A stretch of 64,000 nucleotides of DNA, taken from the NCBI GenBank assembly GCA_902580765.1, contig CACHLW010000004.1, positions 19,888-83,887 of the forward strand, read 5' to 3'. The translations under genes and the position numbers were made by a program. This document shows, one piece after another, positions 4,549 through 24,866 of this stretch. The stretch is from an uncultured Alphaproteobacteria bacterium. GTDB taxonomy: Bacteria; Pseudomonadota; Alphaproteobacteria; HIMB59; GCA-002718135. The notes under the pieces are model-generated. The model ran no database searches. It saw only the letters and a program-made list of their open reading frames with translations, and was not told the origin of the DNA. Positions within the stretch are counted from its first letter, which is position 1, and each line of letters begins with the position of its first letter.

Positions 4549-4555
4549 TAAAGAT

Positions 4556-9963: not shown

Positions 9964-10731
9964 TTATTTAGCTGTCCACCCTCCATCAATTACTAGGGAT
10001 GAACCAGTCATCATTGATGCGGCATCTGAAGCAAGATACACTACTGCACTAGCAATATCACTTTCTGTTGCTATTTTTCCTAAAGGTATGTTTTCAATAA
10101 CAGATTTTTTAAAACTTTTATCTTTGAAAAATTTTTTGACCATTGGGGTTTCCACAAATGTAGGACAAACGGAATTAACTCTAATGTTGTGCTTAGCCAA
10201 ATCAATAGCCATCCCTTTGGTAAGACCTTCAACACCAAACTTAGTCATATTATAAACACTTCTAAGAGGGGCTCCTACTTTACCTAACTGAGAAGAGATA
10301 TTTATTATTGATCCACCAATTTTTTTTCTATTTTTTGATTTAAGCATAACTTTTGTAGCTAATTGAGCAATATCGAATGATGCTTTAATATTAAGATCAA
10401 CCACATCACTCATATCTTTTCTTTTAATTTTGGTGAAATATTCAGGTCTATTTGTGCCAGCATTATTTACTAATATGTCTAATTTATTAATTTCAGAAAA
10501 TATTTTTTTTATTTCTTTTAAATTAGTTACATCACACACATAATAACTACATTTCTTTTTGAGTTTTTTAATTTTGCTTTGAACAATTAAAAGATCTTTC
10601 TCTGTACGACTAAGAATTATTACATTTGCGCCTGCTTCTGCTAATGCTATAGCACATGCTTTACCTATTCCTTTGCCTGACCCTGTCACAAGAGCAGTCT
10701 TATTTTTTACATTAAAATTTTTTAGAAACAT
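9964..10731 (-). CDS. Short-chain dehydrogenase/reductase (SDR)
   Basis: TGSGKGIGKA cofactor motif, NNAG, and a catalytic S...YNMTK (YxxxK). Confidence 0.85.
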   Translation of the reverse strand: MFLKNFNVKNKTALVTGSGKGIGKACAIALAEAGANVIILSRTEKDLLIVQSKIKKLKKKCSYYVCDVTNLKEIKKIFSEINKLDILVNNAGTNRPEYFTKIKRKDMSDVVDLNIKASFDIAQLATKVMLKSKNRKKIGGSIINISSQLGKVGAPLRSVYNMTKFGVEGLTKGMAIDLAKHNIRVNSVCPTFVETPMVKKFFKDKSFKKSVIENIPLGKIATESDIASAVVYLASDAASMMTGSSLVIDGGWTAK

Positions 10732-10744
10732 TTGATCTGATTAT

Positions 10745-11404
10745 TTACAATGAAAAAATAGATTGATCTAATAAATTCATTTTTTTAATACACATTTGAA
10801 AACTATCTTCTAAATGGTAATCACCTGGGAACCCAATGCATTTAATTCCAGCGTTTACAGCAGAATTACTACTTTCTTCAGTATCCTCTATTGCAAGACA
10901 ATCTTCTGGCTGTAAATTTAATTTATCTAATGTGACTTTGTATATTTCTGGATGTGGTTTTTCATTTTTAACAAATGATTTATTACCAATGAATTCAAAT
11001 TCTTCTTTTGAAATTTGACCAGAAAGACTTTCAAATACTGCATCGACATTATTTAAAGTTGTAGAAGTTGAGAAAGCAAGTTTAATATTATTATCTTTTG
11101 TATACTTAATTATTTCACCAACGCTCTTTCTTAATTTTTGTTTATTCTGAATAATGTACGAGCTAAAGATTTCTGTTTTTCTATTTCTAATTTGTGAAGC
11201 ATTTACATTAGTATTATTTTTTTCAGCAAAATCTTCTACCCTTTTTGTCCCACCAGATTTTTTTAACAAAATTTTATAATCTTGCTCATCCCAATACCAA
11301 TCAAGTCCAGCTTCTTTAAAAGCTTCATTAAATGAGTTACGTTGAATGTTAGAAGATTCAATTAGTGTCCCGATAGATCCAAATATAAGTGCTTTATATT
11401 TCAT
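10745..11404 (-). CDS. HAD-superfamily (beta-phosphoglucomutase-like) protein with degenerate motif I
   Basis: Motifs II-IV are recognisable (LAFSTST; KPHPEIY; AIEDTEESSNSAVNAGI). Motif I reads FGSIGTL instead of FDxDGTL. Confidence 0.7.
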   Translation of the reverse strand: MKYKALIFGSIGTLIESSNIQRNSFNEAFKEAGLDWYWDEQDYKILLKKSGGTKRVEDFAEKNNTNVNASQIRNRKTEIFSSYIIQNKQKLRKSVGEIIKYTKDNNIKLAFSTSTTLNNVDAVFESLSGQISKEEFEFIGNKSFVKNEKPHPEIYKVTLDKLNLQPEDCLAIEDTEESSNSAVNAGIKCIGFPGDYHLEDSFQMCIKKMNLLDQSIFSL

Positions 11405-11422
11405 AAGATTAGAAATTTATTA

Positions 11423-12304
11423 TTAACCTTTTACTGCTCCAGCAGTTAAACCACTTATTAATTGTCTTTGGAAAAACATGATTATCATAAAAAGTGGCGC
11501 AGTTGCTGAAACAACACTTGAGACGGCCCACATATAATTTCCACTATGTTCAATTGTGCCCAAATAAGCATTAATTTTAGGAACCATAGTATAATTCTGC
11601 TGATTTAAAAGAAGTGAAGTAACTGTAAAATCATTATAGGCTAACATCATACTGAATAAACCTGCTGTAACAACTCCAGGCCACATAACAGGCATTATAA
11701 CAAAGCGAAACGCTTGAAAATATGAACAGCCATCAATTAGTGCACTTTCATCTAACTCTTTAGGAACTGTTTTAAAGAAGGAATAAAGTAACCATAATGT
11801 AAAGGGTTGATTGATTGCAACTAAAACAATTATGGTAGTTGGAAGTATGCCCCAAACGTTCAATTGGAAGAAAGGAAACAGATAACCAGAAACTAATGTA
11901 ATGTGTGGCATCGCTCTAAAAATCAAGGCAGCTATTAAAATCCAAAAAGTATATTTGTATGTCGATCTAGATAAGGCATAAGCACCTAATGTTCCTAAAA
12001 ATAAAGAGATCGTAACAACTGAAACAGTGATAATAATTGTATTCATTGTTGCTTTCCAAAATTCACCTTCAGTCCAAGACTCTACATATGCCTTAACTGT
12101 AGAAGTATCTCCTGTTTCTATCAAAGTATTAACTCCTGTGACTGCAAACATCCAATCAGCTCTTGAGAAAAAGTCGGCTTTTACTTTAAATGATCCCCAA
12201 AAAGTCCATATAAAAGGAAACACAGAAATAATTAACCAAGCAAGAATAAAAAAACTATTTATTAAAATTAGTTGTTTTGAGTATCTGTTAATTTTTGATT
12301 CCAT
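11423..12304 (-). CDS. ABC transporter permease, CUT1 (MalG-like) type
   Basis: 293 aa multi-TM protein with an EAA-like loop (ELDESALIDGCSYFQAFRFVIMP). Confidence 0.85.
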   Translation of the reverse strand: MESKINRYSKQLILINSFFILAWLIISVFPFIWTFWGSFKVKADFFSRADWMFAVTGVNTLIETGDTSTVKAYVESWTEGEFWKATMNTIIITVSVVTISLFLGTLGAYALSRSTYKYTFWILIAALIFRAMPHITLVSGYLFPFFQLNVWGILPTTIIVLVAINQPFTLWLLYSFFKTVPKELDESALIDGCSYFQAFRFVIMPVMWPGVVTAGLFSMMLAYNDFTVTSLLLNQQNYTMVPKINAYLGTIEHSGNYMWAVSSVVSATAPLFMIIMFFQRQLISGLTAGAVKG

Positions 12305-12305
12305 A

Positions 12306-13334
12306 TTATCTTTCTGTCCTAAATTCTCTCCATGTTCTTATAAGTACTGGTGTTAATAGAATTGCTACACCAATAATAGTTAACATAGAAGTTGCTCCTG
12401 CAGACCCAAATAACATTTTGTTTTCACTTCTTAAGTCGTTATAAATCATCCAAGAAAGTGATTGAGCAACACCTTCAGCAGCGAACCCAATTATTGGCTC
12501 AAGAACCCTAAAATTATCCATTAGACAAATTAATATAATAAATGTTGCTACCGGATAAAGATGTGGAATAACAATGTGTCTGACTCTTTCATATCTTGAG
12601 GCGCCATCTATGATCGCTGCTTCAATTGGATCTTGAGGAACAGTTTGTAATGCAGCATAAAAGACAACAAAAGCAAATGGTGTATTGTGCCAGATCCCAT
12701 AAATAATCAGAGTAATCCAAGTCAATTGACTTGAAGACTTTAGAGATAGATTTGGATCATCAAATAAGAATTGAATGAATGAACCTAATATTCCTTTAGC
12801 ATCTATCATCCAAAATAAAACGAGAGACCCAATCAATGGTGTTACAATCATAGGCAGTATAACACCAAAAATGGTTGGGCCTTTTAAGCTTTTTGTAATT
12901 GTATTTACACTTAAAGCAACAATGAAACCTAAAACTACAACTGGTGGCGTAACTGCAAAACAAAATGTAAGTGTAAATAAAAGTGCTTTGTAAAAAGGTA
13001 AATTTAGTAAGATATCTGTAAACTCAGCTATAGATGAGGAATTAGTCCAAGCCTCTTTAATTTCATCAAAAGCTAAATGATTTCTATCGCCGTATGTTCC
13101 TAAACCATTAAATCTTCCAAGAGGTTGTTCTTCTTGTAATTTTGTAGTGGCCTCAATATCTACTTTAGTTTCAGTTTTACATCCAAATGGATCGCATTTT
13201 TCTACTTCCATTAAAATTTGTTCAGGTTCAATGTGAAGAGATTGAAAAAAACTTGAAATAATTGGAAGGCCAATAAATAATAGCATTGCCAATCCACTTG
13301 GAAAGAAGAACCAAAAAAATGTTCTGTGGGGCAT
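12306..13334 (-). CDS. ABC transporter permease, CUT1 (MalF-like) type
   Basis: 342 aa multi-TM protein with an EAA-like loop (PIEAAIIDGASRYERVRHIVIP). Confidence 0.85.
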   Translation of the reverse strand: MPHRTFFWFFFPSGLAMLLFIGLPIISSFFQSLHIEPEQILMEVEKCDPFGCKTETKVDIEATTKLQEEQPLGRFNGLGTYGDRNHLAFDEIKEAWTNSSSIAEFTDILLNLPFYKALLFTLTFCFAVTPPVVVLGFIVALSVNTITKSLKGPTIFGVILPMIVTPLIGSLVLFWMIDAKGILGSFIQFLFDDPNLSLKSSSQLTWITLIIYGIWHNTPFAFVVFYAALQTVPQDPIEAAIIDGASRYERVRHIVIPHLYPVATFIILICLMDNFRVLEPIIGFAAEGVAQSLSWMIYNDLRSENKMLFGSAGATSMLTIIGVAILLTPVLIRTWREFRTER

Positions 13335-13346
13335 CTATTTCTTGCT

Positions 13347-13380
13347 AAAAAAAAAGTGGAACATAATAATGTTCCACTTT
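13347..13380 (-). terminator. Hairpin plus T-run between the SBP gene and the permease genes (attenuator or terminator)
   Basis: On the minus strand: AAAGTGGAACAT-TATT-ATGTTCCACTTT followed by TTTTTTTTT. Confidence 0.7.
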
Positions 13381-13400
13381 ATCATAAATAATTATACGGT

Positions 13401-14636
13401 TTATAGAAAACCTTGCTCAGTAGCTTTTGCTACATAAGCAGCTTCTACATCCGCTAATGCTTTTTCAGCAGACTCATTTCCTTGAAGGAATTCAACAAGT
13501 TCTGTACTCAAAGCACCATGTAATAGACTCATGTATGGTAAGCTTGGATAAGGTGTTGCACCTCTGTTAGCAGCATCAACAACTGGTCCTGCTGTATCTC
13601 CAGGCGAATAACCATCAATCAACCAAATTGTTGCATTTGGATTAGCATTTGCCATTTCTGTTGAAGTTGCTGCACCTAAAAGAGCTCTAAAAGATGCTTC
13701 TGCATTTTCATCAGAAGTATTTGTTGCAATTCCAAATCCATCCCACCATAGAGTTGTTGCTGGTTTACTTCCACCACCTACAGATGGAGAAGGAGCTAAT
13801 CTAGTATCAGCTTTAATTGCTTGATCACCTTCATCATCTAACAATGAAGCTGCACCTGAATTCCAGATATGCATTAAAGCTACATTACCAGACTCCCATT
13901 CTTCTTTAACTGCATTTGTATCTTGAGTTAAGAAATCAGGGTTACTTACTTCTGTTAATCTTTTAAGCATGTTAAGAGCAGCTACACCTTTAGCGTTATT
14001 TACACTAACTTCAGCTGTTCCAGCTTTAAAGAAATCACCTCCATGACCAAGGTACATATTTACGAACTCTTGACCTAGGTTCCATCCAGATTTAAAAGCA
14101 CCAGCATATGGGTTAGCCATTTTACCAGAAGCTTTAATTTTTTCTGCAGCTGCAATTACTTCTTCATATGTTGAAGGAACTGCGATACCTAGATCATTAA
14201 GAATACTTTCTCTGTACCAAAGATGCTGAGCATTAGCCATGAATGCTATTGCATAGATCTTTCCATCAATCACGATTTTTTGATTGTCTTGTAATGCACT
14301 TCCGTATTTAGCAACTAAATCATCAAGTGGACGAATTAAGTTATCATTCATTAAAGTTGTAATTGAACCATTAGTTACAAGTTTAGCAGAGAATTCAGCT
14401 GGGTTAGCTGATAGGGCTGCAACTTGTAATTTATTATGATCAACGGAATGAGTGACAGAAAAATCTGCACTAGGTCCTGCACAACTTTTTACTTCATCCA
14501 TGAAAATTCTGTATGTTGTAAATTCGTTTGCTAGAATCTTTATTGATCCATCTGTTACTCCACAAGGTGAATGCCCGCCGGCATATGCACTTGTGCTAAC
14601 AAATGTGAACAATAGAGCTATTAATAGTTTTTTCAT
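13401..14636 (-). CDS. ABC transporter periplasmic substrate-binding protein, family 1 (sugar/polyol type)
   Basis: Signal peptide MKKLLIALLFTFVSTSAYA, 411 aa, first gene of the operon with the two CUT1 permeases. Confidence 0.8.
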   Translation of the reverse strand: MKKLLIALLFTFVSTSAYAGGHSPCGVTDGSIKILANEFTTYRIFMDEVKSCAGPSADFSVTHSVDHNKLQVAALSANPAEFSAKLVTNGSITTLMNDNLIRPLDDLVAKYGSALQDNQKIVIDGKIYAIAFMANAQHLWYRESILNDLGIAVPSTYEEVIAAAEKIKASGKMANPYAGAFKSGWNLGQEFVNMYLGHGGDFFKAGTAEVSVNNAKGVAALNMLKRLTEVSNPDFLTQDTNAVKEEWESGNVALMHIWNSGAASLLDDEGDQAIKADTRLAPSPSVGGGSKPATTLWWDGFGIATNTSDENAEASFRALLGAATSTEMANANPNATIWLIDGYSPGDTAGPVVDAANRGATPYPSLPYMSLLHGALSTELVEFLQGNESAEKALADVEAAYVAKATEQGFL

Positions 14637-14658
14637 ATATTTCCCCTTATTAATAAAG

Positions 14659-14671
14659 TGTGAAATTCACA
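14659..14671. promoter_or_regulatory. Palindrome TGTGAA-A-TTCACA 22 nt upstream of the SBP start codon; candidate operator
   Basis: 6-bp perfect arms around one central base, located in the SBP/lacI divergent intergenic region. Confidence 0.3.
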
Positions 14672-14727
14672 TTTAAGTATAAATCCTTTATATTGGTATT
14701 AGAAAATAATGCAATAATATGAATTGA

Positions 14728-14745
14728 TATTCAAGATTTTGAATA
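14728..14745. promoter_or_regulatory. Inverted repeat TATTCA-N6-TGAATA (copy 1); candidate LacI-family operator
   Basis: ATATTCAAGATTTTGAATAT, 20 nt upstream of the lacI-family ATG. The same motif recurs at 17375, 21557 and 21577. Confidence 0.55.
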
Positions 14746-14765
14746 TTGAAATGGGGGGATAATTC

Positions 14766-15764
14766 ATGAGTTTTAAAAAGACTGCGACATCACAGGACGT
14801 AGCAAAATTAGCAGGAGTATCCCAATCAGCAGTTTCCAGATGTTTTACTAAAGGTGCAAGCATTTCTAGCAGGACAAAGTTGAGAGTCTTGGAAGCAGCT
14901 AGAAAATTAAAATATAAAGCACCTAATATATCTTCTAATTCAGTATCTAATGATGATAGTGGATTAGTGGCTGTCATTTTACCTTACGTTACAAGTAGAT
15001 ATTATCCAGAAGTTTTAATTGAGTTACATGAAGCACTTAGGAATGGAGGCTTTAGAATTTTATTAATTACGACTGATGATGGTGAAGAATTAGATGAAAA
15101 ATTAATACAGCCATACTTAAAAGAAAAACTTATTGCAATAATATCAGCAACAAAACCTACTGAAAAATTTGTTGAAGATTGCAATCAAAAAAGAATACAG
15201 TTTATTGCCTATAATAGAAGTTGGAATATACCAACAATAAGTTCCGTTGCGTGTGATCATCGTAATGGAGGAGAAATAGTTGCAGAATATTTTACAAAGA
15301 AAAACCATGAAAATATTGGCCTCATTGAAGGGCCAAAAGGATCTTTTGTTAGCGATGAGCGATGCAAAGGTTTTAAAAATTATCTTAAAAAAAATAAAAA
15401 AATTAAATTAAATATTGAAAAAGGTTTTTTTACCTATGAAGGTGGATATCAAGCAACTGAAAAAATTTTTAATAAAAACATAAGTGCAATATTTTGCGCT
15501 GATGACACAATGGCATTTGGTTGTTTAGATTATATTAAAAAAAATACTTCATTAAAAACACCTTCTCAATTAGAAATTATTGGTTATGACGATATATCTA
15601 TGTCATCTTGGGAATCATATAACCTGACAACTGTGAGACAGCCTATTAGACAAATGTCAAAACTAGCAACTCAATTAATAAATGAATTTATTAAGGATCC
15701 AGATTTTGAACCTATAAATCATATTGTACAGGGAAGACTTATAAAAAGAAAAACTACAAAATAA
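14766..15764 (+). CDS. LacI-family transcriptional regulator
   Basis: N-terminal HTH ATSQDVAKLAGVSQSAVSRCF plus a periplasmic-binding-protein-like effector domain, 332 aa. Confidence 0.9.
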   Translation: MSFKKTATSQDVAKLAGVSQSAVSRCFTKGASISSRTKLRVLEAARKLKYKAPNISSNSVSNDDSGLVAVILPYVTSRYYPEVLIELHEALRNGGFRILLITTDDGEELDEKLIQPYLKEKLIAIISATKPTEKFVEDCNQKRIQFIAYNRSWNIPTISSVACDHRNGGEIVAEYFTKKNHENIGLIEGPKGSFVSDERCKGFKNYLKKNKKIKLNIEKGFFTYEGGYQATEKIFNKNISAIFCADDTMAFGCLDYIKKNTSLKTPSQLEIIGYDDISMSSWESYNLTTVRQPIRQMSKLATQLINEFIKDPDFEPINHIVQGRLIKRKTTK

Positions 15765-15765
15765 T

Positions 15766-16185
15766 TTACTTAAATTTTAATCCCATCTGTTCGAATACAC
15801 CATGATTATCTACCATAACGTAATTATCTAAAAACTTTCCGTCTTTAATGGTCCAAAAATCTGAAAATTGCATTTTGATAGATTTGCCTGTTGGCTCTAC
15901 TCCAAGATATTTTCCACTATGTGTGCCTGTTAGAAATCCCGTTGCACTAATCCACTCACCTTCAGCAACTACAATATCATTTTTTACATGATAATCTGGA
16001 AATGCTTCATAAAAAGGTTTTAGAACTTTATATTTAAAATTATCTATACCATGGATATCACCAAAACCTGGAGGACCATGCCAGACCATATCATCATGCC
16101 AGTACTTGTGTTGTGCTTCTAGATCTTGAGCATTAAGTGCGTCATACATATCAGCTAATAATTTTTTACTTTCATCTAAAGTCAT
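15766..16185 (-). CDS. Single-domain NTF2/SnoaL-like (predicted ester cyclase family) protein
   Basis: 139 aa. The W-x-DDMVWHGPPGFGDIHGIDNF segment matches the C-terminal domains of the 17429 and 21633 proteins. Its start overlaps the upstream gene by 4 nt (ATGA). Confidence 0.7.
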   Translation of the reverse strand: MTLDESKKLLADMYDALNAQDLEAQHKYWHDDMVWHGPPGFGDIHGIDNFKYKVLKPFYEAFPDYHVKNDIVVAEGEWISATGFLTGTHSGKYLGVEPTGKSIKMQFSDFWTIKDGKFLDNYVMVDNHGVFEQMGLKFK

Positions 16186-17321
16186 TTTTTATCTCCTAAA
16201 ATTTGCATTAGAATTGCAAGCTCATTAAAACCAGTCCACTCTTTAATAATTTTATTATTTTTAATTTCCCATTGAGTGATTCCCCACAAATAGACTTCTC
16301 TATTAGTTGGTTGGCCATATGAGCCATTACCTTTATGAGTTCCTACAGCACCCCAACGAACCGATACCAAGTAACCATCTTTTGTATTTCCCATCCAGTA
16401 TAAATCTTCAATACTGAGTGCAAGATCAGGAAATGAAGCTAAAAGTGATATTATAAATTTTCTTAATTGCAAAACTCCTTTAAATTTACGACCAGTTGAA
16501 CCTTCAAATTCTACATTACTAGAGTATGCTTTATTTATTGCAGAAAAGTTTCGTCTATTCCAAATTGTATCATAAACTGCATGAACAAACTCTCTTACAT
16601 TTTTGATTTTATCTGGAATATCAAAACTAATTGGTTTTAATTTAGTAATATTTCTTGTTGGCTTAGAGTTTTTAAAATGGGGAGCATAAGGCCCTGCAAT
16701 TCCCTCATCAACAAGTTGCTTGGCAACTTGATTTAAATCTAATCCGAGTTGTTTAATTAATCCTGCTGTATCGTAAACAACATTTTCGTAATAAATTTCA
16801 TTATTTTTTGCTACACAATTTGCAATACAAAATAATCTTACTTTTTTACCAGTTGGTTTAGAAAATTTGCTAAATCCCGTATTTGTTCCGGTAATAATTG
16901 TTCTATGAGAAGTATGAAAACTTGCATTTTCATCCCCTGCCCAAATAACTTCATCTGCAAATAATCGAATATCTGGAAAGGCGTTATTTGTGTGTACAGT
17001 ATCAGCTACTATTTTTTCAGATCCGGATTGTAAACCAAATTCATCCCAAACTCTGCAGTCTTTACTGTAGGTGTCATAGATATAACCAATATTTTTTTCT
17101 TCCCATATTTGATACGTAATCCTTACAATATAATCAATTATATTTTTATACTGATCCTCAAACCCCTTCATTGATTGATGTTTAAGTTTTTTTGGTTTTG
17201 GATTTAATGATTTAGCTGTTCCTCCACCCCCATATGCTTTTAATGAAATATCATAACTCTTAGGCATATGATGATCTTGAAGGGCTTGTGGTCTTTTATC
17301 TGTAATTTTATTTAATTTCAT
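16182..17321 (-). CDS. Fused double NTF2/SnoaL-like protein, type A (copy 1)
   Basis: It aligns by eye along its length with the 19566-20558 protein (IVRITYQIWE/ILKITYQIWE; DEVIWAGD/EDVIWTGN; PTGKK/ATGKK; VRWGAVGTH/VRWSMVGKH). The first 50 codons have no counterpart in the paralog, so an alternative start at 17171 is possible. Confidence 0.7.
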   Translation of the reverse strand: MKLNKITDKRPQALQDHHMPKSYDISLKAYGGGGTAKSLNPKPKKLKHQSMKGFEDQYKNIIDYIVRITYQIWEEKNIGYIYDTYSKDCRVWDEFGLQSGSEKIVADTVHTNNAFPDIRLFADEVIWAGDENASFHTSHRTIITGTNTGFSKFSKPTGKKVRLFCIANCVAKNNEIYYENVVYDTAGLIKQLGLDLNQVAKQLVDEGIAGPYAPHFKNSKPTRNITKLKPISFDIPDKIKNVREFVHAVYDTIWNRRNFSAINKAYSSNVEFEGSTGRKFKGVLQLRKFIISLLASFPDLALSIEDLYWMGNTKDGYLVSVRWGAVGTHKGNGSYGQPTNREVYLWGITQWEIKNNKIIKEWTGFNELAILMQILGDKK

Positions 17322-17374
17322 AATTAGTATTTGTAATGAGATACATTTAAAAATATTTCAAAGCAATGAAATTT

Positions 17375-17392
17375 TATTCAAAAAAATGAATA
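17375..17392. promoter_or_regulatory. Inverted repeat TATTCA-N6-TGAATA (copy 2)
   Basis: TATTCAAAAAAATGAATA in the divergent intergenic region between the type A1 and type B1 genes. Confidence 0.5.
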
Positions 17393-17428
17393 TTGTCTTT
17401 TTTAGTTTATTAATATAATCAAAATGAA

Positions 17429-18433
17429 ATGACTGATCTCCAAGCAGAAAAAAAATTAGTATTAGATTATTTCAATGAAATAGATAGTTGCAACATTGAT
17501 TCATTATCTGAAGTTATATCTAAATACACATCAGAAGATTTTACTATGAAATGCACACATCCATTCAACGAACTAGGTAGTATAGATCTTGTTGCTAATA
17601 ATCTTTGGAAGCCAATTAAAGATTCATTTTCACCTATACAACGTCGATTAGATATATTTTATGCTGGGATAAATTCATTAGATAAAAATCAAGGGAAATG
17701 GATCTCCAGTATGGGTCATTTCATGGGTGTTTTCAATAAACCGTTTGTAGGCCTTAAACCAAATTATAAATCTATTTTATTGAGATTTGCTGAATTTTAT
17801 AAAGTGGAGAATAATAAAATTACTGAAGGAGCAATTTTTTTAGATGTAATGAATTTAATGCAGCAACTAGGTCTTTCTATAATTCCTGAATCTACAGGTC
17901 TCGTTTGTGTAACACCAGGACCAATGAATCATAAAGGTTTAAAATTTGATATTTCTAATGAAAGTGAAAGTCAAAAAACATTGGATTTAATTCATAGAAT
18001 GCGCGATCGACTTGTTAAAGAATCCAAAATGCAATCTTATAAAGAAGAATTAGAATTAGATTGGCATAATGACATGATTTGGTGGGGACCAGGAGGTATA
18101 GGGGCTTCATATACTATTGATGGTTATCAAAAAGGTCACACAAAACCATTTCAAGATGGTTTAGAGTTTGTTCGCTTCAATGGACACATACTTAGTAGCT
18201 CTGAAGATGATCTTGGAGGTTGGTTTGGTTGGCCAAATTTAATTATGAAACCTAAGGGAGAATATTTAGGATTAACAAATGCAAGTGATATTGAATCAGA
18301 AATGAGAGTTGTAGATTTATATCGAAGAGATGGAGATAAACTGGCTGAAAACTGGATCTTTATTGATCATTTACATTTTTTAAAAAAACTAGGAGTTGAT
18401 CTTTTAGAAAGAGCAAAATTTTTAAATCAGTAA
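17429..18433 (+). CDS. Fused double NTF2/SnoaL-like protein, type B (copy 1)
   Basis: 334 aa. It is a paralog of the 21633-22730 protein (WHNDMIWWGPGGIG / WHPKMMWYGPSGIG; LGLSI / IGIDI C-terminal helices). Confidence 0.7.
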   Translation: MTDLQAEKKLVLDYFNEIDSCNIDSLSEVISKYTSEDFTMKCTHPFNELGSIDLVANNLWKPIKDSFSPIQRRLDIFYAGINSLDKNQGKWISSMGHFMGVFNKPFVGLKPNYKSILLRFAEFYKVENNKITEGAIFLDVMNLMQQLGLSIIPESTGLVCVTPGPMNHKGLKFDISNESESQKTLDLIHRMRDRLVKESKMQSYKEELELDWHNDMIWWGPGGIGASYTIDGYQKGHTKPFQDGLEFVRFNGHILSSSEDDLGGWFGWPNLIMKPKGEYLGLTNASDIESEMRVVDLYRRDGDKLAENWIFIDHLHFLKKLGVDLLERAKFLNQ

Positions 18434-19561
18434 TTAGATAACTTTTGATGCAAGTTTAGTACCCTCAACTAATGCATGAAGCTTTTCATAACAAATTTTT
18501 TCATCGATTTTTCCAAAACCAGCAAATGTACTAAAACCACAATCTGTCCCTGCCATTAATTGATCTTTTGGAATGACTGTAGAAAACTGAATTAATCTAT
18601 CTGCAACAACTTCTGGATGTTCAACAAAATTAGAGGTTGAGTCGATTACCCCAGGTACTAAGACTTTATCTTTTGGTAACTTTATATCTTGAAAAACTTT
18701 CCATTCATGTGCGTGCCTAGGATTAGAAGATTCAATGAGAAAGTATTTTACCTTTGATTTCAAAATTATAGGTAATATTTTCTCTAGAGCAATATCGTGT
18801 GTGTGGGGTCCTTCATAATTGCCCCAACATATATGCATTCTAGTTTGTTCAACATCTACATTAGATAATGCTGAGTTTAGGCATTCAATTTGTAGTTCTG
18901 CACGTTTAATAAACTCATCTTCAGATAAATTTTTAAAATTCATATGTCTTGCTAAAGCAAGGTCTGGGCAATCTAATTGAACTTGGATATCTGATTTTGT
19001 TATTAGCTCATATTCTTTAGCCATAATATTAGATAATTTATCCAAATATTCATCTTCGGTACTATAAAATTTATTTGGCATAAAAACATTTATGACGCCA
19101 GGTGATGCTGAGTTCATAAATGCATGTCGGTGATTAAGTTTATCAAGTGAATTTTTAAAATTATTTATATCCTGTAGAAGAGACGTTTCATCTTTTACTT
19201 TTAATTCGTTTGTACAACATGGTCTGGTATAAGTTGGCGTGCCACCACTTTTAGCAATCTTTTCTTTGTATTCTGGAAAATCATCAAGATCAGCAGGTGC
19301 TCTTCTTTCGCTTTCACCTGAGAACCCATCAATTCTGTCTTTAATATATGTAGCGTAGCTAATTTTACTCATCTCCCCATCACTGACAAAATCAATTCCA
19401 ACATCAAGTTGACTCTTAACAACACTTTCCACGTTATTTTTTAATACTTCATCAAAACTACTTTGACTAAATTTCTCTCCTTTATCTTTTGCAAATAAAA
19501 ATTCTGAAAGTTCTTTTGATCTAGGAAGGCTTCCAACATGTGTTGTTAAAATATTAGACAT
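18434..19561 (-). CDS. MetE-fold (cobalamin-independent methionine synthase II family, catalytic domain only) protein
   Basis: MSNILTTHVGSLPRS, FVSDGEMSK, MHICWGNYEGPH and AGTDCGFS (zinc-ligand positions), 375 aa. Confidence 0.75.
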   Translation of the reverse strand: MSNILTTHVGSLPRSKELSEFLFAKDKGEKFSQSSFDEVLKNNVESVVKSQLDVGIDFVSDGEMSKISYATYIKDRIDGFSGESERRAPADLDDFPEYKEKIAKSGGTPTYTRPCCTNELKVKDETSLLQDINNFKNSLDKLNHRHAFMNSASPGVINVFMPNKFYSTEDEYLDKLSNIMAKEYELITKSDIQVQLDCPDLALARHMNFKNLSEDEFIKRAELQIECLNSALSNVDVEQTRMHICWGNYEGPHTHDIALEKILPIILKSKVKYFLIESSNPRHAHEWKVFQDIKLPKDKVLVPGVIDSTSNFVEHPEVVADRLIQFSTVIPKDQLMAGTDCGFSTFAGFGKIDEKICYEKLHALVEGTKLASKVI

Positions 19562-19565
19562 TAAA

Positions 19566-20558
19566 TTAACCTGTTTTTAATAAAATCTGTTTCCAGATCA
19601 TAGTTTCATCATAGAGAACCCATTCATTTTTAATACCTCTTTCTCCAAATTCAACATGATTAATACCCATTATATAAATTTTCGAATTAGAGGCTTTCCC
19701 GAAAAGACCATCCTCTTCATGTTTACCTACCATAGACCATCGAACTGAAGCTTTTTTAGGTTCATATTTTTCTTCTGTAAAAGCAATGTGCTCAACTGAG
19801 AACAATGCGTTAGGAAAAGCATCTCTTAATTGTTTCCAAAATTTTATTACCTCATCTCTACCATAGTGAGTATTTCCCCCTGGTTGAAATTGCTGTATAG
19901 CTCTGTCATAACTATCATTTATTGTTTTCTCTAAATTGATGTTCATAATAGAGGTTAAGATATTTGCATATAATTCTCCAATGTTACCAGATGCTAAAAT
20001 AGGAGATTTATAAATTGATTTAACAGGTGTATTTTCATCAAAAGGTTTACTAGCTTTTTCATGACCACCCTCATCTTTAATAAGATTGCTTGCAAATTTC
20101 TTGGGGTCAATTCCAATTTGTCTCACAATTGCTCCTTGATCTCTCACAAGCCACTCATCATAAACTTGATTATTCATGCATGCACAATCAGCGATAGTTC
20201 GGTAATATAGTTTTTTTCCTGTTGCTTTCCCATACATCCCATCAACAGAATGAGTAGAGGTTGATAAAATGCGATGCGATGAAAAATATCCCTCATCATC
20301 ATTTCCTGTCCAAATTACATCTTCACCTAAAAGTGTTCTATCGGGAAATAGTTTTTTACTAGCATAGGTATTTTCAATTACTGGGTCTGCACCATAAATT
20401 ACTCCAGATGGAGATCTTGTAGGTGTGGGGAGGCTTACATTTGGAGTATCAGCATAATAATCTCTTATTGCTTCAACATCGTTTTTTTCCCAAATTTGAT
20501 ATGTAATCTTTAAAATATAATCAGGAAAATCTTTGAATTGTGCATCAAATCCTTTCAT
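19566..20558 (-). CDS. Fused double NTF2/SnoaL-like protein, type A (copy 2)
   Basis: 330 aa paralog of 16182-17321 (see that entry). Confidence 0.7.
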   Translation of the reverse strand: MKGFDAQFKDFPDYILKITYQIWEKNDVEAIRDYYADTPNVSLPTPTRSPSGVIYGADPVIENTYASKKLFPDRTLLGEDVIWTGNDDEGYFSSHRILSTSTHSVDGMYGKATGKKLYYRTIADCACMNNQVYDEWLVRDQGAIVRQIGIDPKKFASNLIKDEGGHEKASKPFDENTPVKSIYKSPILASGNIGELYANILTSIMNINLEKTINDSYDRAIQQFQPGGNTHYGRDEVIKFWKQLRDAFPNALFSVEHIAFTEEKYEPKKASVRWSMVGKHEEDGLFGKASNSKIYIMGINHVEFGERGIKNEWVLYDETMIWKQILLKTG

Positions 20559-20569
20559 ATAATTAATTT

Positions 20570-21541
20570 TTAATTAGTTTGTCGTATTATAAATAAATTA
20601 CCATCATGATCACTTATCTGTCTTATTGAACGAAGTGAATTTTTGGGAACAGAAAAAGTATCTTTTTCTTTAATTACAACTTTGTCTCCATCACAATCTA
20701 TTTCCCATTCACCAGATAAACAATGATACACTTCTGATTTCTCCAGCTTGTATTCATGTATATGAGCACTCTTGCCGTTGAGAAGTGAAAGGCTAAAACC
20801 TGTTGCATGTGGTATTTTAGGAGCAAAAGATTTATCATGAATTTTAAACTGATCAATGTAGTTGATAATTTTATTGGATTGATAGTGGTCATCATCGACA
20901 AAATATTTATCTTTATCATTAAATCGAATAACAAACTTTTCTATGTCTTCTGAAGAGTAATGATCGAAATTCTCTAATTCATTATCTTCTAGTGGCTGAA
21001 TAATTTTAGTTTCATCTGTTATTTTCTGTTTCTCTGTGTCGATTAAAGAATTATCATTCATTAATACCATGCCAGATTCTTTTGCATCTTTTAAAAGTTT
21101 AGGTGTCCAAGTAATAACACCTGGATCATTTTCACCTAACACAACAAACATTAAAGCTTCTTCATCACTTACATTTTGAAAACCTCTGAACATGTTTGTG
21201 GGAAAAGAAGCGATGTCACCTTTATTTAGTATTACTTCTCCTTCAGTGCCATCAACACCCCAATAAAAACGCCAGGCACCTGAGTGAATTATAAAAACTT
21301 CTGCTGTTGTGTGACTATGTAATCCAGAACCATTCATCGGCGCAGCACTAACAGCACCAATATTAAAGCCATGTTCTTCAGCTATTTTAACATTTTGTTT
21401 AGCATCTTCACTTACACCAGGTCCTATAACTGAATAATTTTTCCTATCTTGATGACCTTTTAGTTTTCCCTCAACAAATGGTATATTACTAGGAATAAGT
21501 TCATCGAATTTTGCTAATCTAGATGTAATATTAATTGACAT
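20570..21541 (-). CDS. Bicupin protein (N-terminal metal-binding cupin)
   Basis: GSGLHSHTTAEVFIIHSG fits the cupin motif G-x5-H-x-H-x3,4-E-x6-G. A second beta-barrel-like half (HIHEYKLEKSEVYHCLSGEW) is less canonical. Confidence 0.65.
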   Translation of the reverse strand: MSINITSRLAKFDELIPSNIPFVEGKLKGHQDRKNYSVIGPGVSEDAKQNVKIAEEHGFNIGAVSAAPMNGSGLHSHTTAEVFIIHSGAWRFYWGVDGTEGEVILNKGDIASFPTNMFRGFQNVSDEEALMFVVLGENDPGVITWTPKLLKDAKESGMVLMNDNSLIDTEKQKITDETKIIQPLEDNELENFDHYSSEDIEKFVIRFNDKDKYFVDDDHYQSNKIINYIDQFKIHDKSFAPKIPHATGFSLSLLNGKSAHIHEYKLEKSEVYHCLSGEWEIDCDGDKVVIKEKDTFSVPKNSLRSIRQISDHDGNLFIIRQTN

Positions 21542-21556
21542 ATTGTAATGATCTTT

Positions 21557-21575
21557 TATTCATTTTTTTTGAATA
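21557..21575. promoter_or_regulatory. Inverted repeat TATTCA-N7-TGAATA (copy 3)
   Basis: TATTCATTTTTTTTGAATA, 15 nt upstream of the bicupin ATG. Confidence 0.45.
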
Positions 21576-21576
21576 T

Positions 21577-21594
21577 TATTCAAAATAATGAATA
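21577..21594. promoter_or_regulatory. Inverted repeat TATTCA-N6-TGAATA (copy 4)
   Basis: TATTCAAAATAATGAATA, adjacent to copy 3 and 38 nt upstream of the type B2 ATG. Confidence 0.5.
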
Positions 21595-21632
21595 AATCAA
21601 TTATTATTTAACAATAGTTTTATTAAATTATT

Positions 21633-22730
21633 ATGGCAAATAAAATACAAAACTTTGATACAGGTGAGAAAGATAACTCAAACATAATTCATTTAGATCT
21701 TGATCCAAAGATAAATATTGAAAACAAAATATATTTTAAAAATTTATTAAAAAAAATTGCCGAGTGCTCTTTAGATAATTTAGAAGAAAATCTTGAAAAT
21801 TTATATCACGTAGATGCTGAGTTTAATGGATTTCATCCAATTAATGAAATTAAAGGTATTGAAGAAATAAAAAATAAATATTTAATACCTCTAAAGAAGG
21901 CATTCCCCGACCTCGAAAGAAGAAATAATCTAGTTATTGGAGGATCATTTAGAGATAAAGTTTTTGTTTCATTTATTAGTCATTTAACTGGAACTTTTAA
22001 AAATGAGTGGTTGGGCGTAAAGCCGACTAACAAAACAATTTATCTTAGAACATGTGAAGCACATCAGATTACAAATAATAAAATAATAAAATCCTATACA
22101 TTAATTGATACTGTAGATTTTATCCGTCAGGCTGGATATTGGCCTATAAATAAATCTCTTGGGGTAGAAGGGATGTGGCCTAGTCCAATCACAGGTGATG
22201 GAGAAAATAATCAAAATTTAGATAAGGAACTGTCTCTTCAATCTTTGAATCAAGATTTAACCATGCAAAGAAGTTTAAATATTAAACCTGAGACTGAGGA
22301 AGGTCTATCAAAAGATCAAATAAGGGAGAAATTAATTAATCATCCTCAACAAGATTATTGGCACCCAAAAATGATGTGGTATGGGCCAAGTGGTATAGGT
22401 ACAGCTAGAGGTTTAGATGGTTTTGTTGATCATCATCAGCTCCCATTTAGACTTACATTCAAGGACAGAGATTATTGGAAAATCGGTCATTATATTGAAA
22501 TTGGAGATGGAAATTATTCTATGACTGGTGGTTGGCATAGTATTCAATGTGTTCATGGATCAAGTGATTGGCTAGGATATGAACCTACTCAAAAAAAAAT
22601 AACAATGAGAGTCATGGATTTTTATTTACATCACGAAGGGTTAATTAGAGAAAATTGGGTACCAATCGATATAGCACACATATTAGATCAAATAGGCATT
22701 GATATCTTTAAATTAATTCATAAAAAATAA
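21633..22730 (+). CDS. Fused double NTF2/SnoaL-like protein, type B (copy 2)
   Basis: 365 aa paralog of 17429-18433. Confidence 0.7.
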   Translation: MANKIQNFDTGEKDNSNIIHLDLDPKINIENKIYFKNLLKKIAECSLDNLEENLENLYHVDAEFNGFHPINEIKGIEEIKNKYLIPLKKAFPDLERRNNLVIGGSFRDKVFVSFISHLTGTFKNEWLGVKPTNKTIYLRTCEAHQITNNKIIKSYTLIDTVDFIRQAGYWPINKSLGVEGMWPSPITGDGENNQNLDKELSLQSLNQDLTMQRSLNIKPETEEGLSKDQIREKLINHPQQDYWHPKMMWYGPSGIGTARGLDGFVDHHQLPFRLTFKDRDYWKIGHYIEIGDGNYSMTGGWHSIQCVHGSSDWLGYEPTQKKITMRVMDFYLHHEGLIRENWVPIDIAHILDQIGIDIFKLIHKK

Positions 22731-22732
22731 TT

Positions 22733-24052
22733 ATGGCAATAGAATATTTAAAAAAAGGTTTAGACGAAAAACAAAGAATTGAAGATAATGATAAAGTAAA
22801 AAAAATTGTTGAGGAAACGTTAAGTACAATTGAATCAGAAGGCGATAAACATATTAGAGAGTTATCTCAAAAATTTGATAACTATTCTCCAGATAGTTTT
22901 AGATTAAGTGAAGATCAAATTAATCAATTAATGAATGAAGTCTCTGATGATGACAAAGAAGATATTAAATTTGCTCAAAAACAAGTGCGATCATTTGCAG
23001 AAGCACAACTTAAAACTTTAAGTGAATTAGAAGTAGAAACGCATCCAGGTGTGATACTTGGTCATAAAAATATACCAGTACAAGCAGTAGGATGTTATGT
23101 ACCTGCCGGAAAATTCCCAATGGTAGCTTCTGCTCATATGTCAGTTGTTACTGCCTCTGTTGCTGGGGTTCCAAGAATTGTTGCTACTACCCCACCTTTT
23201 AAAGGTAAGCCAAATCCAGCTGTCGTTACAGCAATGAAAATGGGTGGTGCTCACGAAATTTATGTTTTGGGAGGAATGCAAGGAGTTGGTGCTATGGCTA
23301 TTGGTACAGAAACTATTAAACCTGTAGATATGCTTGTTGGACCTGGCAATGCATTTGTTGCTGAAGCGAAAAGACAATTGTATGGCAAAGTTGGTATCGA
23401 TTTATTTGCTGGTCCAACTGAAACAATGGTAATTGCAGATGAAACTGTTGATGGTGAAATATGTGCAACAGACTTATTAGGACAAGCTGAACATGGATAT
23501 AATTCTCCTGCTGTGATGATAACAAACTCAAGAAAACTTGCAGAAGAAACATTTAAAGAAATTGATAGAATTTTAGAAATTTTACCTACTAAAGAAACAG
23601 CAAGCACAAGCTGGAGAGATTATGGAGAAATAATTTTATGTGATACTTATGAGGAGATGTTATCTAAAGCAAATGAAATAGCTTCAGAGCATGTTCAAGT
23701 TATGACAAAAAAAGATGATTGGTTTTTAGAAAATATGACATCTTATGGTGCTCTATTTTTGGGCGCTAGAACTAATGTTGCTAATGGTGATAAAGTTATA
23801 GGCACTAACCATACTCTTCCTACTAAAAAAGCTGGTAGATATACTGGTGGTTTGTGGGTTGGTAAGTTCATTAAAACCCATACTTATCAAAAGATTATGA
23901 CAGATGAAGCTGCAACTCTCATCGGAGAATATGGATCTAGACTTTCACATTTAGAAGGTTTTATAGGTCATGCAGAACAATGTAATGTGAGAGTAAGACG
24001 ATATGGAAAAAAAAATGTTGGATATGGAAAACCAGCAGGAGAAAAAATTTAG
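22733..24052 (+). CDS. Histidinol dehydrogenase family protein (HisD paralog; HpsN-like candidate)
   Basis: 439 aa with LLGQAEHG and typical HisD-fold segments (GPGNAFVAEAKR). It lies in a catabolic operon rather than a his operon, 2 nt after the type B2 gene. Confidence 0.75.
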   Translation: MAIEYLKKGLDEKQRIEDNDKVKKIVEETLSTIESEGDKHIRELSQKFDNYSPDSFRLSEDQINQLMNEVSDDDKEDIKFAQKQVRSFAEAQLKTLSELEVETHPGVILGHKNIPVQAVGCYVPAGKFPMVASAHMSVVTASVAGVPRIVATTPPFKGKPNPAVVTAMKMGGAHEIYVLGGMQGVGAMAIGTETIKPVDMLVGPGNAFVAEAKRQLYGKVGIDLFAGPTETMVIADETVDGEICATDLLGQAEHGYNSPAVMITNSRKLAEETFKEIDRILEILPTKETASTSWRDYGEIILCDTYEEMLSKANEIASEHVQVMTKKDDWFLENMTSYGALFLGARTNVANGDKVIGTNHTLPTKKAGRYTGGLWVGKFIKTHTYQKIMTDEAATLIGEYGSRLSHLEGFIGHAEQCNVRVRRYGKKNVGYGKPAGEKI

Positions 24053-24053
24053 C

Positions 24054-24449
24054 TTATTTTAATTCCCCTTTAACTCTCATTTCATTTCTAATTTTTGTTG
24101 CCGAGATATCATGTATTTCTTTTCCTAAATCATGTTCTGTAAATGAATAACCAACTCCTCTTCCATAAGAAATATCAATAATGTTTGGAACCTTAACAAC
24201 TACATATTCTTTGCCATCAGTAAAACCATGTTGAGCTAAACCTTCATTAATTTTTGCTTTTACTTCTTCAAATTGAAATGGATTGTCAGCTTGACCTTCT
24301 ACACCTGCATCTACACCTCCCACGTCACGATACATAATACATACCTGACCTGTTTTCTGAAGTGCTCTTTTAAATAATTCTGTATGTCCGTCATGCCATG
24401 GTTGCCATCTACCTAACATTTGTACTGTTGGTTTTTTCCAATCAAACAT
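24054..24449 (-). CDS. Small cytidylyltransferase-like (HxGH nucleotidyltransferase) protein
   Basis: 131 aa. GRWQPWHDGH matches the G-x-F-x-P-x-H-x-G-H signature of the nucleotidylyl-transferase superfamily. It overlaps the upstream kinase gene by 8 nt. Confidence 0.55.
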   Translation of the reverse strand: MFDWKKPTVQMLGRWQPWHDGHTELFKRALQKTGQVCIMYRDVGGVDAGVEGQADNPFQFEEVKAKINEGLAQHGFTDGKEYVVVKVPNIIDISYGRGVGYSFTEHDLGKEIHDISATKIRNEMRVKGELK

Positions 24450-24855: not shown

Positions 24856-24866
24856 ATAATTATAAT

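Follow-up and report, generated by a model that had tools for sequence, protein, structure and literature searches.

A LacI-linked gene cluster of SAR11-type and other bacteria, a candidate pathway for the breakdown of a methylated, sugar-derived compound

Gene content and regulation of the island

We investigated a gene island at positions 9964-24052 of a 64-kb stretch of DNA (about 30% G+C; contig CACHLW010000004.1) from an uncultured alphaproteobacterium; this whole stretch is called the window below. Genes were called from the list of open reading frames (ORFs) together with Pfam and NCBIfam scans. The island holds 14 genes (Table 1), encoding a LacI-family repressor, the binding protein and two permeases of an ATP-binding cassette (ABC) importer, a short-chain dehydrogenase/reductase (SDR), a HAD-fold protein, five SnoaL-like proteins, a single-domain MetE-like enzyme, a bicupin and a HisD-family protein. 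We read it as a LacI-repressed regulon of five units, with three operator-bearing divergent promoters, for the non-phosphorylative import and breakdown of a small polar compound derived from sugar, and we put the probability of this reading at about one half. The initial annotation, made from the sequence alone, had described the same gene set, and all 14 genes were found again in the ORF list, Pfam and NCBIfam. Its proposal of an undescribed catabolic system also stands; the genes are co-conserved and linked to LacI, no characterised counterpart was found among annotated loci, and a literature search returned no paper on this gene cluster or combination.

The binding-protein gene heads a minus-strand operon (14636 to 9964) that continues with the two permeases, the HAD-fold protein and the SDR, and lacI is divergent from it. 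The four other units are Sno379 with Sno139 (minus strand), Sno334 (plus strand), the bicupin with Sno330 and the MetE-like gene (minus strand, 21541 to 18434), and Sno365 with the HisD-like gene (plus strand, 21633-24052).

Table 1. Genes and putative operators of the island, with positions in the window.
Feature	Position	Strand	Basis and remarks
SDR oxidoreductase	9964-10731	-	PF13561 and PF00106, E 1e-60; last gene of the binding-protein operon
HAD-fold protein	10745-11404	-	PF13419; without the catalytic Asp pair
Two ABC permeases, CUT1 type, 293 and 342 aa	11423-13334	-	PF00528 (BPD_transp_1)
Periplasmic solute-binding protein	13401-14636	-	PF01547 (SBP_bac_1)
Putative LacI operator 1, TGAATTGATATTCA	14720-14733		Between the binding-protein gene and lacI
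LacI-family repressor	14766-15764	+	PF00356, PF00532, PF13377 (HTH and periplasmic-binding-protein effector domain)
Sno139, single-domain SnoaL, 139 aa	15766-16185	-	PF07366, E 3e-25
Sno379, tandem SnoaL, 379 aa	16182-17321	-	Two PF07366 stretches
Putative LacI operator 2, TGAAATTTTATTCA	17367-17380		One mismatch
Sno334, tandem SnoaL, 334 aa	17429-18433	+	PF07366; paralogue of Sno365
MetE-like single-domain zinc (thiol) alkyltransferase (predicted)	18434-19561	-	PF01717, E 1e-13; 375 aa
Sno330, tandem SnoaL, 330 aa	19566-20558	-	SnoaL family; paralogue of Sno379
Bicupin	20570-21541	-	PF07883
Putative LacI operator 3, TGAATATTATTCA	21570-21582		Inside the 15-base palindrome TTGAATATTATTCAA
Sno365, tandem SnoaL, 365 aa	21633-22730	+	Predicted to be co-transcribed with the HisD-like gene
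HisD-family protein, 'type A'	22733-24052	+	PF00815, 446 bits

The palindrome TGAAT-N3/4-ATTCA is present in all three divergent intergenic regions of the island. Counting the exact pattern in the window alone gave no significant excess (3 found vs about 2 expected). In related loci that keep LacI, operator 1 recurs at the matching position (L001, L013, L014 and L017), and operator 2 has counterparts in L001 (at 12177) and L013 (at 7890). In three SAR11-type loci without LacI (L015, L016 and L033), the half-site G and C are mutated and the operators have decayed. Because the palindromes are conserved in the loci that keep LacI and decayed in those that do not, there is good indirect evidence that they serve as operators of LacI and that the five units make up a single regulon. 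Loss of the repressor together with decay of its operators looks like a natural switch to constitutive expression in these three loci.

Distribution and variants in other genomes

We scanned one genome per GTDB species with the MetE-like protein, which gave more than 595 relatives among the matches listed, and tabulated co-location by tblastn for the best 80 of these loci. About 50-60 of the 80, from several orders, hold the gene set in one place, which bears out the expectation that these genes are conserved together. Near the MetE-like gene lie the HisD-like gene, at 62-80% identity across classes, and tandem SnoaL genes, at 30-53%. The SDR (35-49%) joins them in Roseobacters and gammaproteobacteria, and the other partners are the bicupin and lacI (each about 30% identical to the island copies) and a transporter. 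Carriers include Roseobacters (HTCC2255 among them), Rhizobiaceae, Geminicoccaceae, Rhodospirillales, SAR116 and Sphingomonas yunnanensis; further carriers are Halioglobus, Pseudohalioglobus, Granulosicoccaceae, Pseudohongiella, a SUP05 single-cell genome, Lysobacterales and some soil bacteria. Co-location across so many orders is far beyond chance, and the set is not specific to SAR11.

The genes are also common in the sea. Searches of marine metagenomes returned at least 8000 matches each for the MetE-like and HisD-like proteins and 1390 for the bicupin, and some clusters of these matches at 90% identity have hundreds of members. Island synteny is kept in SAR11-type single-cell genomes, with 86% and 99% protein identity. 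On annotated plasmids of Ruegeria, Octadecabacter and Marinovum, tblastn found orthologues with 50-53% identity, in clusters with a UgpC-type ATPase, binding protein, two permeases, several 'ester cyclases', 'hisD', SDR, LacI and cupin; genes for an alpha/beta hydrolase and an RraA-family protein come after the MetE-like gene there. In gammaproteobacteria (clusters of the Halioglobus type) a TonB-dependent receptor and an SSF symporter stand in place of the ABC importer, so the transporter is replaceable.

The variants also show how the route may end, as many of them encode a class II pyruvate aldolase of RraA or HpcH type. A gene for an aldolase of the RraA family, to which LigK and GalC belong, is found in 21 loci, including L015, L016 and L033, where it was gained between Sno330 and the MetE-like gene. 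In six Halioglobus-type loci, an HpcH/HpaI-family aldolase gene lies directly 3' of the MetE-like gene, and five of the six also carry a member of Amidohydro_2, the family of LigI and LigJ. Pelagibacter Uisw_092 has an HpcH gene three genes past the transporter genes, bringing this type to about seven loci. The swap of one pyruvate aldolase family for the other argues strongly that the last step is an aldol cleavage of a 4-hydroxy-2-oxo acid. The 64-kb window itself contains neither an RraA-type or other class II pyruvate aldolase nor an alpha/beta hydrolase.

Reduced versions of the cluster in Pelagibacteraceae and SAR116 consist of the ABC system, HAD-fold protein, bicupin, Sno330, MetE-like gene and one or two more SnoaL genes, with no type-A HisD-like gene, SDR or LacI. 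The core of the cluster is therefore made up of bicupin, Sno330 and MetE-like gene. In the sphingomonads Croceicoccus and Sphingobium, a MetE-like gene with 45-46% identity overlaps a 130-aa NTF2 gene, and the pair sits among genes for methoxylated aromatics (a ligM-like demethylase, metF, purU and folD). Croceicoccus (L005) has ligABK alongside as well, the genes of protocatechuate 4,5-cleavage that end in the LigK aldolase. None of the cluster versions examined contains a kinase, glycosidase, polyketide synthase (PKS) or desulfonating enzyme.

The number of SnoaL paralogues differs between strains; a sixth gene (about 357 aa, 32% identical to Sno365) follows the SDR in L001 (19633-20721), L011, L013 and L017 and is not found in the window. 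Two types of ABC binding protein and permease are linked to the cluster, as a comparison of L003, L007, L014 and L017 with the window (11423-14636) showed. Binding proteins of the window's type are 46-61% identical in several other lineages, while the second type, which Ruegeria carries, is only about 40% identical. The two may serve related but different substrates. The Halioglobus-type locus L038 additionally encodes proteins of 470 aa (5382-6794) and 139 aa (19758-20177) that match no Pfam family; L041 has conserved copies of the two, and L052 of the larger one.

The HisD-like enzyme

The closest solved relative of the HisD-like protein is CpHpsN (8V35; 402 bits, about 48% identity), a dehydrogenase of 2,3-dihydroxypropane-1-sulfonate (DHPS), followed by RpHpsN (8WWE, 356 bits); the best HisD match scores 259 bits. 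An exact-protein look-up found no identical sequence on record. In alignment with CpHpsN, the zinc ligands Q251, H254, D353 and H413 and the catalytic pair E319-H320 are invariant, and Lys353 is kept. Because these residues are kept, the enzyme very probably oxidises R-CH(OH)-CH2OH to the acid as HpsN does, with transfer of four electrons.

HpsN is defined by the motif G-R-Y-A/S-H, the last residue of which (His126) binds the sulfonate, and HisD has G-S-A-P-L at this place (PMC11382572). The window's protein reads PAGKFPM where HpsN has PAGRYAH, and its G-K-F-P-M differs from the HisD motif as well. The form K-[FY]-P-[ML] is found in all 45 cluster-linked copies and in all 120 top metagenome matches, some of which the JGI annotation nevertheless names 'sulfopropanediol 3-dehydrogenase'. 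In addition, a Trp near the pocket of HpsN is Val here, which weakly suggests a larger substrate. The motif, this substitution and the partner genes thus set the enzyme apart from HpsN-dependent DHPS catabolism, although the zinc ligands, Glu-His pair and Lys353 are shared; judged by its missing sulfonate signature, it is not HpsN. The conserved cluster also has no hpsOP, hpsKLM (a tripartite ATP-independent periplasmic, or TRAP, transporter), suyAB, cuyA or slcD/comC. We likewise rejected HisD of histidine biosynthesis, given the G-K-F-P-M motif, the bit scores (259 vs 402) and the catabolic context.

Canonical RYAH and a third form, RYNN, occur only in Pelagibacteraceae loci and in the SAR11-related metagenome-assembled genome L017, with an extra RYSH copy in L084. 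Such RYAH or RYNN genes lie beside pta in L017, L018 and L021-L032. RYNN has Asn in place of the sulfonate-binding His, and the enzymes with this motif may likewise not be genuine DHPS dehydrogenases. The RYAH gene of Pelagibacter Uisw_092 is co-directional with pta and a gene for Ldh_2, and it is convergent with the ATPase gene of the cluster. We therefore do not count the Pelagibacteraceae HpsN gene as a cluster member and read the one in Uisw_092 as a neighbouring, putative DHPS or sulfolactate unit.

The MetE-like enzyme, bicupin, SnoaL and HAD-fold proteins and the transporter

The initial annotation had called for remote homology and structure searches. These gave HpsN for the HisD-like protein, only generic matches for the bicupin and the SnoaL groups, and remote ones for the binding protein. 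Of the protein descriptions it had offered, those of a zinc MetE-fold enzyme and of a HAD-like pseudo-phosphatase agree with what follows; the metal bicupin and the ABC importer agree in part.

In the MetE-like protein, the zinc site H-x-C...E...C (H243, C245, E277 and C341) is invariant among nine sequences from three orders. S11, E63 and D197 are invariant too, and align to the MetE motifs GS, GE and IDEP. In MetE, these motifs bind the amino-acid end of homocysteine. That they are kept along with the zinc site suggests that a methyl group is passed from the pathway substrate to a homocysteine-like thiol. The best NCBIfam methionine-synthase model scores 106.6 bits against a cut-off of 406, and there is no N-terminal folate-binding barrel. 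The enzyme may belong to a new class of thiol-dependent demethylases. Its nearest known counterparts are the single-domain core MetE families, MesA-D, of which MesD pairs with DUF1852. They share the single barrel, the zinc motif, the GS/GE/IDEP-aligned residues and the lack of a folate barrel, as well as a small accessory protein in some genomes. Unlike them, the island copy falls far under the cut-offs, lies in a catabolic regulon and has a partner of NTF2 fold rather than DUF1852. A literature search found nothing relevant on a MetE-type O-demethylase, and a paper on GBT and methionine synthase (PMC12478193) was rejected as a precedent, as it concerns the cobalamin-dependent MtgBCD.

The N-terminal barrel of the bicupin has invariant H75, H77, E81 and R119, with Arg119 in place of the motif-2 His. 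The barrel therefore lacks the fourth metal His of metal-dependent cupin dioxygenases, and the C-terminal barrel is degenerate, with no conserved metal ligands; the description as a metal bicupin holds for the N-terminal half only. Profile searches of the PDB gave weak matches, to quercetinase, acireductone dioxygenase, DddK and KdgF among other cupins. The AlphaFold model has a mean pLDDT of 73 with a poorly resolved N-terminal barrel, and Foldseek aligned it to generic bicupins (oxalate decarboxylase and quercetinase, TM-score about 0.5). With matches this generic, dioxygenolytic cleavage is only one option. Quercetinase and acireductone dioxygenase, although the best of these weak matches and alike in bicupin architecture and in the N-terminal H-x-H...E, differ in the motif-2 His (here Arg119), in the degenerate C-terminal barrel and in sequence (10-14% identity). 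DMSP-lyase cupins such as DddK (DMSP, dimethylsulfoniopropionate) carry the fourth metal His, as do most metal-binding cupins. A DMSP lyase, to which the cupin had been taken to hint, was rejected on this ground and for want of any DMSP context.

The five SnoaL proteins (PF07366 and PF12680) comprise nine domains and fall into two paralogue groups, Sno379 with Sno330 (34% identity between their N-terminal domains) and Sno334 with Sno365 and Sno139. Sno330 is the member most conserved across taxa, at 40-53% identity in alpha- and gammaproteobacteria, and its homologues nearly always adjoin the bicupin and MetE-like genes. The profiles of the SnoaL groups matched only generic SnoaL, SnoL, AclR and IdmH structures in the PDB. 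In the HAD-fold protein, motif I reads IFGSIGTL in place of DxDGT, so both catalytic Asp are gone. Nine orthologues, drawn from SAR11, SAR116 and a SUP05 single-cell genome, all have FGSIGT, and the loss is therefore old and maintained. The protein matches the beta-phosphoglucomutase family, and no MtnC model is among its 20 NCBIfam matches. Phosphatase or beta-phosphoglucomutase activity was rejected, as the nucleophilic Asp of D-x-D is gone.

The binding protein and two permeases of the proposed importer are present, but the island encodes no ABC ATPase and the 64-kb window no MalK-type ATPase; in other lineages the ATPase gene lies in the cluster. The permeases are 52-79% identical to those of other lineages. 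The binding protein has only remote matches in the PDB (E 1e-11, to a trehalose/maltose-binding protein). The SAR11 glucose-binding protein SAR11_0769 (8HQQ) is also only a remote match and was rejected as an orthologue. No link could be made to SAR11_0271 of HTCC1062, an orphan for which no ligand was found (PMC11485210).

Genes flanking the island

As first described, the island lies between pta (8176-9075) and xsc (28284-30053; TIGR03457, 952 bits vs a cut-off of 676). Upstream are ald, an omega-aminotransferase gene (tpa), pta and an EamA transporter gene. Downstream, about 4.2 kb with five unrelated genes (two small genes, cysQ, a Na/Ca exchanger and a GMC oxidoreductase) separate the HisD-like gene from xsc.

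Three of these five, at 24054-25658 on the minus strand, are co-directional and encode a nucleotidyltransferase-like protein (131 aa), a P-loop protein (137 aa, similar to the N-terminal half of adenosine 5'-phosphosulfate kinase) and a bona fide CysQ (TIGR01331, 288 bits vs a cut-off of 229). The trio looks like a fragmentary set of the 3'-phosphoadenosine 5'-phosphosulfate/3'-phosphoadenosine 5'-phosphate (PAPS/PAP) type, in a host lineage that presumably has no assimilatory sulfate reduction. Both of the small genes recur in L001, L002 and L009, with 98-100% conservation, and are absent from other related loci. The GMC gene (26679-28283, plus strand) adjoins xsc and encodes a choline-dehydrogenase-like protein that scores under the BetA cut-off. 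In the SUP05 single-cell genome (L079, 12694-14292), a 40% identical GMC gene lies inside the cluster, between a permease and a SnoaL gene; the enzyme may be an occasional cluster member. Further upstream (3013-5605, plus strand) is a gene for a PehA-like sulfatase or phosphoric-ester hydrolase (411 bits, under the cut-off of 900), whose 3' end is overlapped by a second, different single-domain MetE-like gene (PF01717, E 9e-41; PRK04326, 219 bits vs a cut-off of 406). This copy is far nearer to the core methionine synthases than that of the island.

Proposed pathway and alternative readings

Taken together, the predicted enzymes point to a substrate with a transferable methyl group and a CH2OH beside a hydroxylated carbon, and probably a carbocycle. 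It would be taken up by the binding-protein-dependent ABC system, using an ATPase encoded elsewhere in the genome. The HisD-type enzyme would oxidise its primary alcohol to a carboxylate, and the SDR a secondary alcohol. The MetE-like zinc enzyme would pass the substrate's methyl group to a homocysteine-like thiol, a demethylation yielding methionine. The SnoaL-fold proteins would, without a cofactor, isomerise or dehydrate cyclic keto or enol intermediates or hydrolyse their C-N or C-O bonds, and the N-terminal cupin site (two His and one Glu, plus Arg) would cleave or rearrange an alpha-hydroxy-enone (reductone-type) intermediate. In relatives, a pyruvate aldolase would finally split the 4-hydroxy-2-oxo acid so formed, giving pyruvate and another acid, for example oxaloacetate; an end in this aldolase suggests entry into central carbon metabolism. 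The substrate was initially described as methylated and/or sulfonated and polyol-like; 'methylated' and 'polyol-like' are still plausible, while 'sulfonated' is unsupported.

Several observations weigh against this scheme. The window has no gene for an aldolase, alpha/beta hydrolase or ABC ATPase. The reduced sets of Pelagibacteraceae and SAR116 do without the HisD-like enzyme and the SDR, so alcohol oxidation may not be essential. Given its missing fourth metal His and generic fold matches, the bicupin could be an isomerase or decarboxylase instead, and the MetE-like enzyme might simply be a methionine synthase. The functions of the SnoaL proteins cannot be read from their sequences, as their profile matches are generic.

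Parts of this scheme resemble two known pathways. The logic of myo-inositol catabolism is similar, with cyclitol import, dehydrogenation, dehydration, ring opening, a cupin step and aldol cleavage; these reactions involve the dehydrogenase IolG, dehydratase IolE, hydrolase IolD, cupin isomerase IolB and aldolase IolJ. The island differs in having no homologue of IolE, IolD or IolC and no kinase, and its SnoaL, HisD-type and MetE-like proteins have no iol counterpart. With the lower pathway of protocatechuate 4,5-cleavage and gallate (LigI, LigJ and LigK/GalC, with LigM and DesA), relatives of the island share an RraA- or HpcH-type aldolase, Amidohydro_2 and an alpha/beta hydrolase, and in sphingomonads the MetE-like gene lies beside a ligM-like gene and tetrahydrofolate (THF) C1 genes, in L005 with ligABK as well. 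In contrast, the cluster has a bicupin instead of a LigAB- or GalA-type dioxygenase, a MetE-like enzyme instead of a THF-dependent demethylase, and a sugar-type transporter and LacI, and the window holds no lower-pathway genes. A repressor-controlled catabolic cluster is of an ordinary kind; the combination of enzymes, its spread among dominant heterotrophs of the sea and the likely mis-annotation of the HisD-like gene as hpsN are not.

Other readings account for some of the same genes. The LacI repressor, CUT1 ABC system, SDR and beta-phosphoglucomutase-type HAD fold would all suit a methylated sugar or uronate (an O-methyl or methyl-esterified sugar or sugar acid), which would be oxidised and demethylated, made linear or isomerised by a KdgF/KduI-like cupin, reduced by a KduD-like SDR and cleaved by a GarL/YfaU-like HpcH aldolase. 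HpcH-family aldolases serve sugar-acid routes and are found in the gammaproteobacterial versions, and the cupin has weak KdgF matches. No version contains an enolase-, IlvD- or UxaA-family dehydratase, a kinase or a glycosidase, however, nine SnoaL domains are atypical of sugar-acid routes, and Amidohydro_2, the LigK-type RraA aldolase and the sphingomonad context point to ring chemistry; we regard this reading as unlikely. Ring chemistry would be met by a methoxylated aromatic acid of the O-methylgallate or syringate type, demethylated by the MetE-like enzyme and opened by the cupin, with 4-carboxy-4-hydroxy-2-oxoadipate (CHA) split into pyruvate and oxaloacetate. The MetE-like/NTF2 pair among ligM-like, metF, purU and folD genes (and ligABK in L005) fits such a route, as do the RraA or HpcH aldolase and Amidohydro_2 of marine versions. 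Yet LacI with a sugar-type ABC or SSF transporter is unusual for aromatic acids, the HisD-type enzyme needs a hydroxyl or amino group beside the CH2OH, which benzylic alcohols do not have, and known gallate dioxygenases are not cupins. An aromatic substrate is for these reasons distinctly unlikely, although the idea merges with our preferred reading if the imported compound is a hydroaromatic precursor.

The initial annotation had leaned towards sulfonates. In such a route a sulfonated polyol or glycoside of the DHPS or sulfoquinovose type would be imported, the HisD-like enzyme would act as HpsN and the product would pass to Xsc and Pta. HpsN is indeed the closest solved relative, Lys353 is kept, tpa, pta and xsc flank the island, the JGI names orthologues accordingly, and the remote PDB matches of the binding protein include one that binds sulfoquinovosyl-glycerol. 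But the His126 motif is absent from every cluster-linked copy, outside SAR11 the cluster is not conserved together with any sulfolyase or Xsc, and in Pelagibacteraceae the canonical HpsN forms a separate neighbouring unit with Ldh_2 and pta. DHPS uptake in SAR11 goes through the TRAP protein SAR11_0864 (PMC13335735), and a SAR11 'HpsN', which may or may not be type A, has a Km of about 106 mM for R-DHPS (PMC11131964). With the HpsN signature absent and the pta/xsc link confined to SAR11 lineages, the sulfonate reading is unsupported, and we consider it quite improbable. The island might instead scavenge reduced sulfur from a thioether sugar, for instance 5-methylthioribose or S-ribosylhomocysteine, with the MetE-like enzyme taking the homocysteine or methylthio part and an enolase-like HAD protein and acireductone-dioxygenase-like cupin processing the diketone. 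SAR11 does need reduced sulfur, and the kept GS/GE/IDEP-aligned residues, the weak acireductone dioxygenase match of the N-terminal cupin and a HAD fold without the phosphoryl-accepting Asp are in its favour. This is nonetheless very improbable, as the HAD protein matches the beta-phosphoglucomutase family and no MtnC model, the cluster is common in sulfate assimilators (Roseobacters and soil taxa), and the pyruvate aldolase and HisD-type step would have no role. A biosynthetic, polyketide-like cluster is hardly credible; the SnoaL Pfam matches and the NCBI name 'ester cyclase', with its GO term 'polyketide metabolic process', suggest one, but there is no PKS, nonribosomal peptide synthetase, acyl carrier protein or exporter, the architecture is that of an importer with a LacI repressor, relatives carry a pyruvate aldolase, and the cluster is present in streamlined SAR11 genomes.

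A possible link to mycosporines

A more specific proposal, tentative and on balance unlikely, is that the cluster would be the first catabolic pathway for mycosporine-like amino acids (MAAs), which are marine sunscreens, and their core, 4-deoxygadusol or gadusol. The sugar-derived core ring bears C1=O, C2-OCH3, C3-OH and C5(OH)(CH2OH). Hydrolysis of the enaminone and imine C-N bonds would fall to SnoaL-fold proteins and the alpha/beta hydrolase and would free glycine, serine or threonine, amino acids that SAR11 requires. The MetE-like enzyme would move the enol-ether methyl to homocysteine, making methionine, and would then be a new O-demethylase that needs neither cofactor nor O2. Type-A HisD would turn the CH2OH beside the tertiary OH into a carboxylate, and the cupin, by an Fe-type aci-reductone cleavage, would cut the resulting ring between C2 and C3. 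This would give HOOC-CO-CH2-C(OH)(COOH)-CH2-COOH, which is CHA, the substrate that LigK-type (RraA-family) aldolases turn into pyruvate and oxaloacetate, and RraA or HpcH genes are found in the clusters of relatives.

If true, this would explain the sugar-type transporter and regulator, the unusual HisD variant and the MetE-like enzyme, the presence of a cupin and of many NTF2-fold proteins, and the aldolase swap, as well as the sphingomonad tie to methoxylated gallate chemistry. The variety of MAAs would account for the two binding-protein types and the several SnoaL paralogues. A literature search found no paper on MAA-degrading genes.

Significance

Whatever its substrate, the cluster bears on how sulfur-cycle surveys are read. 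The type-A HisD-like gene carries the JGI label of sulfopropanediol 3-dehydrogenase without the HpsN signature, a probable mis-annotation, and estimates of DHPS use in SAR11 that count hpsN-like genes or transcripts may therefore include it. The nucleophile-less HAD-fold protein and the nine SnoaL domains represent possible new enzymology, and culturable carriers exist in Ruegeria (Ruegeria sp. AD91A and R. conchae), Marinovum (M. algicola DG898) and Octadecabacter (O. arcticus 238). SAR11, SAR116, pelagic Roseobacters and OM60/NOR5-type gammaproteobacteria all have carriers of the cluster, which is abundant in metagenomes; some dissolved compound is thus probably a common substrate for these groups.

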